Made by a program: the position numbers and the translations under genes. The notes below the pieces were generated by a model that saw only the letters and a list, made by a program, of their open reading frames with translations, ran no database searches and had not been told where the DNA came from. DNA of 20,000 nt, from the IMG/VR virus record IMGVR_UViG_3300034107_000607, one strand, 5' to 3'. This document shows, in pieces, positions 4,017 through 18,401 of the stretch; within the stretch, counting starts at the first letter, position 1; every line of letters starts with the position of its first letter. This stretch comes from an uncultured virus (IMG/VR IMGVR_UViG_3300034107_000607). Taxonomy: Duplodnaviria; Heunggongvirae; Uroviricota; Caudoviricetes.

Positions 4017-4913
4017 ATGGCATCACGTGTACAACTAATGAAACAGAAGGGACTTATCAGTCCGCCAAGGTGGCTACCTCAAAACATTCACTATGAAGTG
4101 ATCACCGGTTCTGTCAGCTATGCTGTAAGTTCAGACACTTCTGATATGGATGTTGTTGGTTTTTGTATGCCACCAAAAGATGACATCTTCCCGCACCTTC
4201 GTGGTGAGATTCCTGGTTTTGGTTTACAACACAAACGATTTGAATTATGGCAGGAACATCACATCATGGATAATGAATCTCGTCAAGAATACGACTTCAG
4301 TATCTATTCAATCGTGAAGTTTTTTCAACTTGCAATGGAAAATAATCCGAATATGGTTGACATTCTGTTTACTCCACAACGGTGTGTTTTGTATTGCTCT
4401 ACTGTTGCTCAGATTGTCCGTGATAACCGCAAACTATTCTTGACAAAGAATTCGTATCACAAGTTCCGCGGATATGCTTATGCTCAATTGCACAAGATCG
4501 GCACGAAGTCAAATAGTTCCAATCCTAAGCGCCAAGCTGACATCGAAAAACACGGCATGGATCTTAAGTTTGCTTATCATGTTATTCGTCTTGCTCTTGA
4601 GGGTGAACAGATCTTGATGGAGCATGATCTTGACATTGAACGAAATGCTGAAGTCCTGAAAGCAGTTCGTCGTGGTGACTGGAGTGAAGAGAAACTCCGG
4701 AGCTGGTTTGATGCTAAGGAGAAACATCTTGAAGAACTTTATACCAAGTCAACCCTTCGGCATGTGCCGGACGAAGATGCTATCAAGGATCTTCTTATGA
4801 CTTGTCTAGAACAGCACTATGGTTCTCTGGATCAAGCTGTCAAACGCGATGTTCCGGTAGAACGGCTTGTTGCTGAACTAAAGTCCGTCCTTGAAAAGTA
4901 TGAAGGTAGGTAA
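4017..4913 (+). CDS. Pol-beta superfamily nucleotidyltransferase (RlaP/YcgL-like)
   Basis: GSVSYA...SDMD (GS...DxD), NPNMVDIL and KFAYHVIRL motifs. Confidence 0.85.
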   Translation: MASRVQLMKQKGLISPPRWLPQNIHYEVITGSVSYAVSSDTSDMDVVGFCMPPKDDIFPHLRGEIPGFGLQHKRFELWQEHHIMDNESRQEYDFSIYSIVKFFQLAMENNPNMVDILFTPQRCVLYCSTVAQIVRDNRKLFLTKNSYHKFRGYAYAQLHKIGTKSNSSNPKRQADIEKHGMDLKFAYHVIRLALEGEQILMEHDLDIERNAEVLKAVRRGDWSEEKLRSWFDAKEKHLEELYTKSTLRHVPDEDAIKDLLMTCLEQHYGSLDQAVKRDVPVERLVAELKSVLEKYEGR

Positions 4914-7788: not shown

Positions 7789-7891
7789 TTCTGTTTTCAC
7801 ATGCTCTTTAGTCCGTAATGTAGTACGGTTAACCTCGCCCATTTAGTTGGTTGGACTGGTTCGAATCCAAAAAGAGCAGCTGAAAACAGAA
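7789..7891 (+). ncRNA. stem-enclosed tRNA-like RNA (CTGTTTT family, copy 1)
   Basis: TTCTGTTTTCA/TGAAAACAGAA stem enclosing GCTCTTT/AAAGAGC and a GGTTCGAATCC T arm. Confidence 0.6.
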
Positions 7892-9220: not shown

Positions 9221-9850
9221 ATGTCTAGAAATGAAGATTGGGTTGCAACCGTAATAGCAAATTTAGAAGTAAATGAAAATGGAATTGCACTAGATATAGG
9301 AGCAAATCATGGAATTTACTCAAAATTACTTGCATCAAAATTTGGGAAAGTTTATTCATTTGAACCACACCCAGACAATGTAACAAAGATTAAAGCTAAA
9401 GTTACTGAACAAAATGTTCAAATAGAACAAAAAGTAATTGGAACATCAGATGGTGTTATTGATCTTTTTGTTTGTTCTGCAAATGATGGTGGTCACACTA
9501 TTATGGAAGGTTTGGCAAAACTCAAGAAATGGGGACATTCAGTAAACAATACTATACAAGTACAATCAATAACACTTGATACATTTTGTAAAGATATCAA
9601 AGTTGATTTTATTAAATGTGATATTGAAGGTGGTGAATATGAAATATTTTACCATGGACAAGAAATTCTTACTAGAGATTATCCTACAATTGTCTTAGAA
9701 ACACATCAAGTATCTGACATAAAAAGTGACCAAGTTAAACGTGACAAATTATTTAAATACTTCAAGGATTTGGGGTTTTCAATTCTAGATACCAAAAATA
9801 ATGAAGTTGTAGCATTTACATATGACACACACTATCTAATACAAAAATAA
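9221..9850 (+). CDS. FkbM-family SAM-dependent methyltransferase
   Basis: LDIGANHG, FEPHP, TLD and IKCDIEGGE motifs. Confidence 0.9.
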   Translation: MSRNEDWVATVIANLEVNENGIALDIGANHGIYSKLLASKFGKVYSFEPHPDNVTKIKAKVTEQNVQIEQKVIGTSDGVIDLFVCSANDGGHTIMEGLAKLKKWGHSVNNTIQVQSITLDTFCKDIKVDFIKCDIEGGEYEIFYHGQEILTRDYPTIVLETHQVSDIKSDQVKRDKLFKYFKDLGFSILDTKNNEVVAFTYDTHYLIQK

Positions 9851-9856
9851 AATTAA

Positions 9857-9983
9857 AGGATCATTTCAGCAACAAATATGCATATCATTCGGAGATCGAG
9901 TCGTAGGTGCAATTCCTACACCCCTGACCATACACTGACAGGGGTTAGTTTAGTAGTAAAACGCGTAGCAAAAAGTTGATCCT
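9857..9983 (+). ncRNA. CAGCAA-stem RNA 1 with circularly permuted tRNA-Pro-like module
   Basis: AGGATCA/TGATCCT stem. T arm, then ACCCCTG-A-CCA, then CAGGGGT-TA and D arm. Confidence 0.8.
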
Positions 9984-10475: not shown

Positions 10476-10634
10476 ATGACAATGACCAAACTGATTGAAC
10501 GTCTTGCTCGTAATGCTGCTGATTTTCTCCTTGCAGGTGAGATTGAAAAATCCAATGCTTGCATGGAACTGTTGACCGTTATCAAAGATAAAGGTCTTGA
10601 AAATATCCGCGGAAAATTGGTTGACAATCTGTAA
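10476..10634 (+). CDS. 52-aa hypothetical protein (MTMTKLIERLARNAADF...)
   Basis: AAGGA RBS, between promoters. Confidence 0.75.
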   Translation: MTMTKLIERLARNAADFLLAGEIEKSNACMELLTVIKDKGLENIRGKLVDNL

Positions 10635-10649
10635 GAATCAGTTTATACT
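10621..10649 (+). promoter_or_regulatory. sigma70-type early promoter
   Basis: TTGACA-N17-TATACT. Confidence 0.9.
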
Positions 10650-11270: not shown

Positions 11271-11786
11271 GTGAAGTTTGATAGTTTTATTTTTTATGAG
11301 ATGATTGAAACAGATGCATTGCCACCGAATGGTATATTTGATATTACCCATAGTATGAAAGAAGACTATGTATCTTTATATTCAAAATATTCTGGCAATG
11401 GTGATACAAAAACAAATTCTAATAAAAATTATGCTTTAAAATTAGCTGGTTTATCTTTGTTGAAATTAAATTTACAAAGAGAAGAAATAGAAGAAGTAAA
11501 AACTAATAAATCAAAGACAAAAACAAAAAGTGGAATTGTTTATTTAATTAGTAATCCTGCTTTTGATGGTTTTATTAAAATTGGTATGACCAAAAATCTC
11601 GTAAATCGTTTAAGATCTTATCAAACATATGATCCGATGAAAAGATATAAAGTTGAACATTACCGTGTTGTTGAAAATGCAAGAGAAGAAGAAAGATATT
11701 ATCTAACTCATTATAAAATTAACATTGCAAAAGGTGAATGGGTTTATAAAGAAAATATAAAAGAATTGTTCCTCAGTGGCCGATAG
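11271..11786 (+). CDS. GIY-YIG superfamily (T5orf172-like) endonuclease domain protein
   Basis: GIVYLI...IKIGMT...RL...GEW motifs. Start codon uncertain. Confidence 0.8.
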   Translation: MKFDSFIFYEMIETDALPPNGIFDITHSMKEDYVSLYSKYSGNGDTKTNSNKNYALKLAGLSLLKLNLQREEIEEVKTNKSKTKTKSGIVYLISNPAFDGFIKIGMTKNLVNRLRSYQTYDPMKRYKVEHYRVVENAREEERYYLTHYKINIAKGEWVYKENIKELFLSGR

Positions 11787-13602: not shown

Positions 13603-13675
13603 GCGGGTAAGGTTATGGCAACCAATCAGATTTCCAATCTGCAGGAGACCGGTTCGATTCCGGCTACCCGCTCCA
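13603..13675 (+). tRNA. tRNA-Gly(TCC), second copy with reduced D arm
   Basis: Loop TTTCCAA, U73, CCA. Confidence 0.8.
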
Positions 13676-13783
13676 ATTCCTGACAGCCAGATGATAGCCA
13701 GGTATCATGGATTGAGTTTATATAGGTGACTATAGACATTCTATCCACGACACTGGTGACGCTCTGGCTTGACAAATACAAAA

Positions 13784-14003
13784 TGGATCATTACAGCAAC
13801 AAATTAGCATCCTTGAAATGGGCCGTGTCGGAGGTTCAAATCCTTCCTCTCCCACCACGGATACTGTTAGTTTATGACAACCTTTCTTGTATAAGATATT
13901 AATAGGCTTATATGGCGAGACAATTGGGTATAAACTAGCGTGCAGTATCTTTGATGGGAGAGTAGCTCAGGTAGTAGAGCAGGTTACGCAAAAAGTTGAT
14001 CCA
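13784..14003 (+). ncRNA. CAGCAA-stem RNA 2 with circularly permuted tRNA-Phe-like module
   Basis: TGGATCA/TGATCCA stem. T arm, CTCTCCC-A-CCA, 98-nt hairpin linker, GGGAGAG-TA-GCTC D arm. Confidence 0.8.
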
Positions 14004-14015
14004 GAAAAATAATGG

Positions 14016-14044
14016 TTGACATCCTTACAGAATCAGTATATATT
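14016..14044 (+). promoter_or_regulatory. sigma70-type early promoter
   Basis: TTGACA-N17-TATATT. Confidence 0.85.
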
Positions 14045-14069: not shown

Positions 14070-14375
14070 ATGAACCAATACATCTTCGAAAAAGCTTCCG
14101 ATACTGCAATCCGTGTACTTTGGATTGAGTCTGATGAAGACGGTCGTAGATCGGTCGCCAATATCATGGAAATGTCTCATGATGGTTCTAAAGAAAGTCT
14201 GAAAGTCACCGTCAAATGTCTTTATGAAATGATGTTTATCGGTGAACAATCAGGTGATGAACTTGGTTATAAGGTTGAAGTTGCTTACAAAGACTATGAT
14301 GCTTCTCTTGAAGGTAAAGCTCGTAAGCAATCTTCGAAGGAAATTAACGTGATTACCGAACAACTTTTCGGTTGA
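14070..14375 (+). CDS. hypothetical protein
   Basis: 101 aa with AAGGA RBS. The stop lies within the next -35 box. Confidence 0.85.
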   Translation: MNQYIFEKASDTAIRVLWIESDEDGRRSVANIMEMSHDGSKESLKVTVKCLYEMMFIGEQSGDELGYKVEVAYKDYDASLEGKARKQSSKEINVITEQLFG

Positions 14376-14400
14376 CAAACACACAGAATCAGTATATGGT
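14372..14400 (+). promoter_or_regulatory. sigma70-type promoter
   Basis: TTGACA-N17-TATGGT. Confidence 0.8.
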
Positions 14401-14885: not shown

Positions 14886-14998
14886 AGGATCAATACAGCA
14901 ATTTTAACAACCAGTAGATTGTAGGTTCAAGTCCTACCTTAGATCACACAAGATCTTTGTGGCCAAATGGTAAAGGCAACCGGCAAATAAATGATCCT
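14886..14998 (+). ncRNA. CAGCAA-stem RNA 3 with permuted T/acceptor/D module
   Basis: AGGATCA/TGATCCT stem. GTAGG-TTCAAGT-CCTAC precedes GCC-AAATGGTAAA-GGC. Confidence 0.75.
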
Positions 14999-15110: not shown

Positions 15111-15139
15111 TTGACATTCGTATAGAATCAGTTTATACT
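15111..15139 (+). promoter_or_regulatory. sigma70-type early promoter
   Basis: TTGACA-N17-TATACT. Confidence 0.9.
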
Positions 15140-16003: not shown

Positions 16004-16062
16004 AGGATCAGTTCCGCAAACAAGCGAAAATTTCAATTTTGGTTTGAAAAACAAATGATCCT
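16004..16062 (+). ncRNA. CAGCAA-stem RNA 4 (minimal, Gln-like anticodon hairpin)
   Basis: AGGATCA-GTT-CCGCAA...TGATCCT with TTTCAA-TTTTGGT-TTGAAA. Confidence 0.65.
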
Positions 16063-16071
16063 GCTTATAAT

Positions 16072-16153
16072 GCTCGCGTACGCCCCACCGCTACGAACGG
16101 TGCCAAAGCTAACTGGAGGTAAGATGTAGGTTCGAGTCCTATCGCGAGTACCA
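16072..16153 (+). ncRNA. D-armless or rearranged tRNA-Arg(ACG)-like RNA
   Basis: GCTCGCG/CGCGAGT-A-CCA, CACCG-CTACGAA-CGGTG and a normal T arm. Confidence 0.7.
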
Positions 16154-16602: not shown

Positions 16603-16681
16603 AGGATCAGTTCAGTAAACAATCTGGATAAAAACAAATCTTCAAAATTTGAATAAGTGGTTCAATTCCACAATTGATCCT
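16603..16681 (+). ncRNA. CAGCAA-stem RNA 5 (UCA anticodon arm plus T arm)
   Basis: AGGATCAG/TTGATCCT stem enclosing CAAAT-CTTCAAA-ATTTG and GTGG-TTCAATT-CCAC. Confidence 0.7.
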
Positions 16682-16692
16682 GTAAAGACCCA

Positions 16693-16756
16693 AGGATGGG
16701 TTCAGCAAAAAAGAAAGCAACAAACATTTAATTTGTAAACGCTCAAAAACCATCCT
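16693..16756 (+). ncRNA. CAGCAA-stem RNA 6
   Basis: AGGATGG-GTT-CAGCAA...CCATCCT with compensatory stem changes. Confidence 0.65.
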
Positions 16757-16858: not shown

Positions 16859-16964
16859 GTTTCTGTAATTCAGCGGTAGAAGGGCACCCCAGCTATGATG
16901 GTAAGATACACCGAAAAAGAACTGGCTCTGCGGGACGTGGGTTCGAATCCCACCAGAAACCCCA
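16859..16964 (+). ncRNA. tRNA-like RNA with a long insertion in place of the anticodon loop
   Basis: GTTTCTG/CAGAAAC-C-CCA with normal D and T arms. Confidence 0.7.
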
Positions 16965-18213: not shown

Positions 18214-18319
18214 AGTTTGTGTACAGCAATCAATTAAAATCATAGCATAGGTCGTAAGCTTCGGCAACAAGATCACAACAGTTTTCGATTTTCTGTCCAA
18301 AAAAGTAGACACACAAACT
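18214..18319 (+). ncRNA. CAGCAA-stem RNA 7
   Basis: AGTTTGT-GTA-CAGCAA...ACAAACT-G. The stem is largely changed but still paired. Confidence 0.65.
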
Positions 18320-18325
18320 GTTAAT

Positions 18326-18401
18326 GATCCCGTAGCTCAGATGGTTAGAGCATGCTCTCTAAAAGCAAATGTCGTGGGTTCGAGTCCCACTGGGGTCACC
18401 A
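18326..18401 (+). tRNA. probable amber suppressor tRNA(CTA)
   Basis: TGCT-CTCTAAA-AGCA anticodon arm with normal D, T and acceptor arms, A73, CCA. One nucleotide short 5' of the anticodon stem. Confidence 0.7.

Follow-up and report, generated by a model that had tools for sequence, protein, structure and literature searches.

In a 20,000-nucleotide (nt) stretch of DNA from the uncultured virus IMGVR_UViG_3300034107_000607, referred to here as the window, positions 13784-14003 appear to form one gene of a multi-copy family of structured small RNAs lying in a phage tRNA cluster. This element, which we named RNA 2, shares with a second element at 9857-9983 (RNA 1) two conserved terminal strands, the handle, which enclose a tRNA-like body in circularly permuted order. 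The explanation that we favor, with slightly more confidence than doubt, is that handle RNAs are modular tRNA mimics, built from two modules in the manner of the YrlA RNAs and taking no part in decoding.

RNA 2 is predicted to fold as a cloverleaf opened in its anticodon stem

RNA 2 is real DNA and not an assembly artefact, because contig X21 from an independent lake-water sequencing run spans 13650-14041 with 0 differences; a second contig spans 13783-14041, and the stretch 13784-14003 was present in 24 lake-water DNA runs, with no RNA run listed among its carriers. Read along the plus strand, the element runs from an anticodon hairpin through a T arm, the acceptor 3′ strand with ACCA, a 98-nt linker and the acceptor 5′ strand to a D arm. 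It opens with the 5′ strand of handle helix P1 (U-GGAUCA, 13784-13790), which pairs with 13997-14003. Next comes the conserved 5′ handle strand (13791-13809), which reads UUACAGCAACAAAU and then UAGCA, the part that forms a short GC helix, P2, with 13987-13989; RNA 1 and 12 viral contigs have this strand in identical or nearly identical form, and its motif YNC-N-GCAA-Y recurs in the vibriophage hairpin form described below. The anticodon-type hairpin UCC/UUGAAAU/GGG (13810-13822; GAA at 13815-13817) represents tRNA positions 29-41, and the following CC (13823-13824, positions 42-43) pairs with GG at 13982-13983; together they give a 5-base-pair (bp) anticodon-type stem that is broken between positions 28 and 29. 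The variable loop GUGUC (13825-13829), the T arm GGAGG/UUCAAAU/CCUUC (13830-13846) and the acceptor 3′ strand CUCUCCC with discriminator A and CCA (13847-13857) complete the upstream half.

The acceptor of RNA 2 is a 7-bp stem followed by ACCA, but the CCA continues directly into the linker, which is exactly 98 nt long (13858-13955), prolongs the acceptor stem as an irregular hairpin and ends in a single-stranded leader, UUUGAU, before G1. The acceptor 5′ strand GGGAGAG, UA, the D arm GCUC/AGGUAGUA/GAGC, A26 and G27 G28 then occupy 13956-13983 (at base level, 13956-13980 reads GGGAGAG-TA-GCTC-AGGTAGTA-GAGC). The 3′ handle strand UUACGCAAAAAGU (13984-13996), the A-rich side of the internal loop, leads into the P1 3′ strand UGAUCC-A (13997-14003), and the next base is G14004. 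An earlier sequence-only reading had placed the hairpin, T arm, CTCTCCC-A-CCA, linker and D arm base-exactly, whereas the terminal helix that it gave as 6 bp is in fact 7 bp, T13784 pairing with A14003.

The minimum free energy fold of 13784-14003 comprised the handle helix, the hairpin, the T arm, the linker-extended acceptor stem and the D arm, at −63.9 kcal/mol (z = −2.86; equalled by 1/200 shuffles); the fold of RNA 1 gave z = −2.30 (4/200 shuffles). As modeled, RNA 2 departs from the tRNA cloverleaf at two points: its anticodon stem is opened at 28/29, where the handle exits, and its acceptor end, rather than being free, is bridged by ACCA, the 98-nt hairpin and UUUGAU. At the joint, a three-way junction would be formed that includes the handle's 7-bp helix and conserved internal loop. 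The 5′ flank GGATCATTACAGCAACAAAT (13785-13804) occurs twice in the window, at 9858 and 13785, versus 0.01 copies expected and with two copies in 0/200 shuffles, and the 3′ flank GCAAAAAGTTGATCC (13988-14002) occurs exactly twice, at 9968 and 13988. The sharing of flanks with RNA 1 that had been reported earlier was confirmed around a different body: RNA 1 carries its handle around a permuted body with a C1-G72 pair, ACCA, an 8-nt linker and the loop AUUCGGA.

The handle defines a family with exchangeable cargo

In the handle the two ends pair as the 7-bp helix P1, 5′ N-GGAUCA with UGAUCC-N′-G 3′. Inside P1 lies an asymmetric conserved internal loop, UUNCAGCAAY(A)AAU facing the A-rich AAAAAG, followed by a GC helix of 2-3 bp. 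An exact-match scan found the 5′ flank in 12 viral contigs with 8 different interiors; three of these 12 loci were near-identical to the window, and the others carried bodies with loops reading UGA, UGG or CAU or, in two cases, just a small hairpin. The 3′ flank matched 105 stretches, and the script run on 80 fetched loci flagged 19/80, of which 2 were self-overlaps and 17 had a 5′ handle upstream, the rest being chance 15-mer matches. We also applied an objective filter, which required a G-started 6-mer, an NTN spacer, CNG(C/T)AA, an exact complement of the 6-mer at most 270 nt away and an A-rich stretch before that complement. Over all DNA collected it returned 42 distinct handle elements, versus 0 in a shuffled copy.

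These 42 elements are 49-225 nt long and use 13 P1 sequences. The −1/+1 pair is Watson-Crick in 41/42 (24 A-U, 11 U-A, 6 G-C), the base after P1 is G in 42/42, and a T-loop-like motif is present in 28/42. Their cargo may be a full permuted tRNA body, a normal-order body joined through its acceptor end (L096 208-302 and L072 428-543), a T arm alone or a plain hairpin. The family is thus defined by its handle, whereas its cargo may vary freely. In both normal-order copies the cargo was read as a tRNA without an acceptor stem, and the anticodon arm of the L096 copy, UCUGA-CUUUUAA-UCAGA, is of the lysine UUU type. The lysine UUU-type tRNA is the target of several known anticodon nucleases.

At least seven handle RNAs were found in the window, all on the same strand as the tRNAs. 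Besides RNA 1 and RNA 2, RNA 3 (14886-14998) has GGAUCA AUACAGCAAU ... GGCAAAUAAA UGAUCC around a T arm, a capped stem and a D arm, with no anticodon-type hairpin. RNA 4 (16004-16062; z = −2.77) is an "empty" handle that encloses a single small hairpin, and it is the orthologue of an element at locus L003; RNA 5 (16603-16681; z = −3.31) holds a T-arm-like hairpin alone. RNA 6 (16693-16756) has a covarying P1, GGAUGG/CCAUCC, and no tRNA-like cargo, and in RNA 7 (18215-18318) the motifs ACAGCAAUCAAU ... AAAAAAGUAG are joined to another P1, of 8 bp, GUUUGUGU/ACACAAAC, and the interior folds weakly (z = −0.45). Directly 3′ of RNA 4, at 16071-16153, lies an odd tRNA-like stretch with a T arm, an irregular front half and the end GAGUACCA; the "empty" handle is paired with an odd tRNA-like gene at L003 and L005 too. 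The lake-run contigs point to modularity in nature: they covered the handle strands in greater numbers than the body and ended at handle borders, and one of them links both handle strands around a different, 92-letter interior.

The handle was absent from the literature compared on permuted tRNAs and tRNA introns in phages, KVP40 tRNA pseudogenes and T4 species 1 RNA, a comparison outside which the KVP40 genome paper lay. Rfam searches at gathering and E-value thresholds returned only tRNA and weak YrlA or transfer-messenger RNA (tmRNA) matches, and a scan of the contig for antisense targets of the conserved loop strand gave no interpretable enrichment.

A hairpin form of the handle in vibriophages

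Megablast against GenBank phages gave a tRNA-Pro as its sole match; the vibriophage link came through a weak blastn match, which led to Vibrio phage 6E35.1a and then to KVP40, nt-1, VH7D, D479 and TCU-VP03. These phages carry normal-order tRNA-like genes with an anticodon-arm insertion of about 46-50 nt, placed between positions 28 and 29 in one subfamily and replacing the anticodon loop in others. This insertion comprises an A-rich strand, a helix of 7 bp that ends in a GNNA-type tetraloop, a spacer of 3 nt (NUN) and CNGCAAY. On this sequence likeness, we regard it as the handle in hairpin form and the vibriophage genes as members of the same RNA family. GenBank labels them tRNA-Pseudo or tRNA-OTHER, that is, pseudogenes, and Rfam reads them as tRNAs with a large insertion.

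Covariation was assessed in 13 hairpins. Their P1 was 92.9% paired versus 70.2% in shuffles, a level reached by 0/500 shuffles, and pairing was at most 60% when the partner strand was slid; five of the seven pairs change on both sides. The length of P1 is fixed at 7 bp in both topologies. In one vibriophage subfamily the acceptor stem is extended to 13 bp by pairs between leader and trailer, with compensatory changes at 8/13; selection there maintains a closed or extended acceptor end and not a free one.

The KVP40-type genes tRNA-Pseudo-4 and -5/tRNA-OTHER resemble RNA 2 in the A-rich strand, the 7-bp P1, the NUN spacer, CNGCAAY and the tRNA-cluster setting, and they differ in their normal tRNA order, in the GNNA-type tetraloop that caps the handle and in their open acceptor end. 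Because KVP40-type phages have this mirror order, with the handle as a capped anticodon-arm hairpin, the window form is a circular permutation of the vibriophage design, the two being one RNA shape. The family is kept across freshwater and marine T4-like phages. In engineered tRNA scaffolds, the anticodon arm is made to carry a functional RNA motif, and the tRNA body supplies folding, processing and stability; the vibriophage form is like such scaffolds, except that the phage RNAs are natural and occur in two permutations. As a separate observation, KVP40, TCU-VP03-AIR1 and T4 have a gene annotated as 57B "RNA ligase" (L129 [KVP40] 1-446; L132 378-833) 0.7-1.7 kilobases (kb) from a handle-tRNA or the tRNA cluster.

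The tRNA shape appears to be under selection, and decoding does not

RNA 2 and its orthologue at L009 differ by compensatory changes at three pairs, 4-69, 5-68 and 51-63, including an A-U to U-A change in the T arm. Because of these three compensatory pairs, we concluded that the tRNA shape is probably under selection; decoding, to judge from the sequence comparisons that follow, probably is not. The linker, which the earlier reading suggested may be released as a separate small RNA, is 105 nt long in L009; in this comparison with one distant orthologue its interior is not conserved, and only its base and the UUUGAY leader before G1 are shared with RNA 2. ACCA is kept across differing linkers in three sets of elements (L007a/L014/L066/L025, RNA 1/L041 and RNA 2/L009/L139). 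When 13 permuted members were aligned with MAFFT, the T and D stems of one subgroup were placed wrongly, and the alignment was set aside for pair counting.

The anticodon loops do not behave in the same way. The loop reads AUUCGGA or UUUGGGA among clearly orthologous bodies; another orthologous set has AUUGGAA, AUGGAA, AUUGAAA or none; and vibriophage variants read AUUCUAA, AUUCAUAA, AUUUCCAA and AUAGGGA. Loops of 6 and 8 nt occur among orthologous bodies. Some acceptor stems are bulged and tetraloop-capped, and tetraloops seal the acceptor ends of L004, L006 and L011. The T loop UGCAA, with G55, was found in 5 handle RNAs versus 0/35 canonical tRNAs of the contig, and in relatives it goes with an altered D loop, that is, with an altered elbow. 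RNA 2 itself departs from the elbow bases G18 G19/U55 C56: its D loop AGGUAGUA reads UAG in place of the tRNA UGG and has A at the expected G18. Compared with the contig's own tRNAs, the RNA 2 body matched Gln best (0.75), a result uninformative on origin.

RNA 2 is probably a tRNA look-alike and not a working tRNA. ARAGORN and the Rfam tRNA model, run over the window, called no tRNA at 13784-14003, and both recognized the body as a tRNA only once its order was restored and the handle taken away. After the halves were swapped and the handle was excised in silico, ARAGORN called Phe-gaa for RNA 2 in 35/120 cut combinations. The suggestion that different tRNAs sit in the same handle held up on such un-permuted, handle-free forms: RNA 2 and L009 were called Phe-gaa, RNA 1 Arg-tcg, L041 and L007a Pro-tgg and L010 Met-cat, and Ser-tga was also obtained. 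The statement that no canonical tRNA-Phe occurs is correct within the window but not on the contig, where a canonical tRNA-Phe(GAA) lies outside the window at G000:C1:67850-67925; a canonical tRNA-Arg(UCG) is likewise encoded elsewhere on the contig. As for the conservation of GAA, the loop is present in RNA 2 and L009, and no hairpin with a GAA loop was read at L139 1501-1674 (the G001 orthologue), that is, it is kept in 2/3 Phe-type orthologues. In view of these findings and the sealed acceptor ends of relatives, the implication that RNA 2 is the phage's tRNA-Phe is not supported. A decoding tRNA-Phe was accordingly judged unlikely, on the canonical copies on the contig, the drifting loops, the sealed acceptor ends, the non-tRNA cargo and the lack of a splicing endonuclease gene in the records searched.

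Comparison with YrlA and other known RNAs

YrlA has been described as a circularly permuted tRNA mimic, and that of M. smegmatis as having a 7-bp acceptor stem, being cut by RNase P and receiving CCA (Chen 2014, PMC4201824; Wang 2018, 10.1101/312249). Handle RNAs resemble YrlA (RF02553; bacteria and mycobacteriophages) in the terminal stem formed by the ends around a T arm, a capped acceptor stem and a D arm, and in the variable length of that acceptor stem. They differ in handle sequence, the motif GNCGAAN0-1G not being read in the phage handle; in having an anticodon-type hairpin, of which YrlA has none; and in encoding ACCA and carrying cargo that is exchangeable and sometimes absent. The YrlA core model scored 31.9 bits (E = 7e-5) on the second L007 element (557-652), with L007 581-648 the best relative; the RF02553 gathering threshold is 69 bits. 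Because this threshold was missed, the YrlA motif was not read in the handle and no Ro60 gene was found in the phage records searched, we say by analogy that a handle RNA may work like YrlA, not that it is YrlA.

A two-piece (permuted) tmRNA was also considered and rejected: the acceptor pair is G3-C70, not G3-U70, the tmRNA_permuted model gave 11.1 bits against a threshold of 47 and at L007 only, and ARAGORN called no tmRNA. Permuted tRNA genes, which occur in the red alga Cyanidioschyzon merolae as well as in some other algae and some archaea, have the 3′ half upstream and a linker between CCA and position 1; a bulge-helix-bulge, a splicing endonuclease and a circular intermediate lead to decoding tRNAs. 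RNA 2 likewise has its 3′ half upstream of its 5′ half and a linker between CCA and position 1, but its junction lies in the anticodon stem (28/29), and its flanks are a conserved multi-copy module. T4 rnaC and rnaD (species 1 and 2 RNA) are comparable as small stable RNAs at the end of a tRNA cluster with a partly tRNA-like 3′ end; scanning the T4 region for the motifs revealed no handle. By eye only, and missed by that scan, T4 rnaD (L134 2054-2172, minus strand) has a hairpin UGAUG...CAUCA followed by CAGCAGAAAC and GGCGCACCA, faintly like a hairpin-form handle beside an acceptor 3′ strand.

Proposed function and alternative explanations

In the explanation that we favor, RNA 2 would not decode. 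The constant handle, by analogy with YrlA, would dock a candidate partner or provide processing or stability, and the tRNA-shaped module would be recognized by tRNA-binding enzymes. RNase P may cut before G13956 and leave ...ACCA, as with M. smegmatis YrlA, giving a two-piece RNA still clamped by the handle. The most plausible role would be that of a decoy or sponge in the conflict between phage and host over tRNAs, an idea that fits because a gene for an RlaP-family RNA-repair nucleotidyltransferase (4017-4913; E = 3.7e-19) lies 9 kb upstream.

Several points weigh against this explanation. Most handles were found by exact-match scans, and their near-invariance is therefore partly built in; the vibriophage covariation comes from only 5 related genomes; and the ends, processing and stability of handle RNAs are all inferred from sequence. 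RF02553 was unmatched on RNA 1 and RNA 2 at E ≤ 1 and in the contig at E ≤ 10, and a Ro60/TROVE gene (PF05731) was found in 0/9 phage records (0/1, 0/5 and 0/3), one of which is rated 100% complete. Moreover, an RNA 2 freed of its handle would have an anticodon stem of 5 perfect bp and a loop of 7 nt that includes U33 and a purine at 37, and the 7-bp acceptor stem and ACCA are exactly placed, with ACCA conserved in orthologues that have different linkers.

The last of these points would be accounted for if RNA 2 were a permuted pre-tRNA, a counterpart of the C. merolae genes in which RNase P and CCA trimming, removal of the handle and ligation of 28 to 29 by phage repair enzymes yield a chargeable tRNA-Phe. 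Exact tRNA geometry after in silico handle removal, with ARAGORN calls of Phe, Arg, Pro and Met, the conserved ACCA and single-stranded leader, Rnl-family RNA ligase genes in 4/5 records searched and RlaP in the window are all in keeping with such a route. We nevertheless consider it quite unlikely: canonical tRNAs with the same anticodons lie on the contig, a tRNA-splicing endonuclease gene (PF01974; controls positive in 4 archaea) and an RtcB gene were each found in 0/5 records, and no bulge-helix-bulge motif was read at the RNA 2 junction. The same handle also encloses cargo that can never become a tRNA, some acceptor ends are sealed by tetraloops (L004, L006 and L011), loops of 6 and 8 nt and anticodon shifts occur within one body type, and the handle is conserved far beyond the needs of an excised spacer. 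A variant in which the handle is a joining module, its strands being excised and 28 sealed to 29 by an Rnl-type ligase or RlaP after RNase P and CCA maturation, would yield chargeable tRNAs from permuted or "pseudo" genes in general; we hold it to be highly improbable.

Two further explanations give the tRNA shape no role of its own. The handle could be a processing or stability cassette, a host RNase signal or exonuclease clamp in the tRNA-cluster transcript, around cargo that is merely stable. The position of the elements between tRNA genes with no clear promoter or terminator of their own, their A/U-rich flanks and the fixed 7-bp P1 in both topologies agree with this; still, we judge it unlikely, as a cassette without a useful product would not persist at 5-10 copies per genome, the compensatory changes in cargo stems and the strong conservation of single-stranded loop sequences would go unexplained, and the vibriophage handle is internal to the RNA, not terminal. 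At the level of DNA, the copies could be miniature mobile elements with short terminal inverted repeats, recombination scars or decaying pseudogenes of the tRNA array, with no RNA function. Such an origin would suit the many copies with near-identical ends and differing interiors, the metagenome contigs that break at the repeat, the T5orf172/MUG113-type nuclease gene in the array (11271-11786) and the GenBank label of pseudogene, and yet it seems very unlikely to us. All copies are co-oriented with the tRNAs; the handle strands are inverted repeats over 7 bp only, yet both are conserved; P1 covaries over 13 sequences; the vibriophage helix is a capped hairpin inside an RNA; and freshwater and marine T4-like phages share the family.

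Source phage and neighboring features

The window belongs to a virus record of 80 kb whose completeness is rated at about 40%. Its source is a T4-like (Straboviridae-type) lake phage with genes for topoisomerase subunits of the gp39 and gp52 types; the gp52-type subunit is 44.6% identical to its counterparts in Aeromonas T4-like phages. ARAGORN called 25 tRNAs in the window, all on the plus strand, and the Rfam tRNA model 26. A gene for an FkbM-type methyltransferase (9221-9850; E = 1.7e-19) stops 8 bases before RNA 1, and the open reading frame (ORF) at 11271-11786, inside the tRNA array, has T5orf172/MUG113 domains of a homing-nuclease-like family. RlaP and Rnl are commonplace in large phages (Iyer 2021, PMC7824862).

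Some other features of the array are recorded as observations. A tRNA with anticodon CUA at 18326-18401, labeled "tRNA-Pyl" by ARAGORN, is of the amber-suppressor type (Rfam tRNA, 54.3 bits), and a 103-nt Rfam tRNA match at 16859-16961 (41.3 bits) has a long insertion in the anticodon region, a CCA end and no recognizable handle motif. Just 5′ of tRNA-Thr, at 7802-7878, an 8-bp terminal helix, UGCUCUUU/AAAGAGCA, surrounds a hairpin and the T-arm-like GGUUCGAAUCC; it possibly represents a further type of tRNA fragment with clamped ends, its fold z being only −1.11. Strong sigma-70-like sites (TTGACA-17-TATAxT, 10-11/12) lie at 14016-14044, 14372-14400, 15111-15139 and 10621-10649, just 3′ of handle RNAs or ahead of small ORFs, and two of the four have the longer motif GGTTGACA...CAGAATCAGTATAT in common. 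Consensus scans were not above shuffles either for promoters (19 promoter-like sites versus 14.2 ± 4.1) or for terminators (5 terminator-like sites versus 4.6 ± 3.0).

Implications for phage tRNA clusters

Phage tRNA clusters are now regarded as weapons against host defenses that cut tRNAs. Our analysis suggests that they also harbor a second, unannotated class of genes, for modular RNAs with a conserved handle and exchangeable tRNA-shaped cargo, and that the KVP40-type "tRNA pseudogenes" may be reinterpreted as conserved structured RNAs. The occurrence of one RNA shape in two circular permutations would be a rare natural case, which reveals the parts that matter, and KVP40 on Vibrio offers a cultivable model in which a partner of the handle may be sought. 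The design principle of Y RNAs, a docking stem joined to a tRNA mimic, would thereby be extended to phages without Ro60. If handles were after all joining modules, permuted tRNA genes would be known for the first time from a bacterial virus, together with a new, protein-based route of tRNA splicing.

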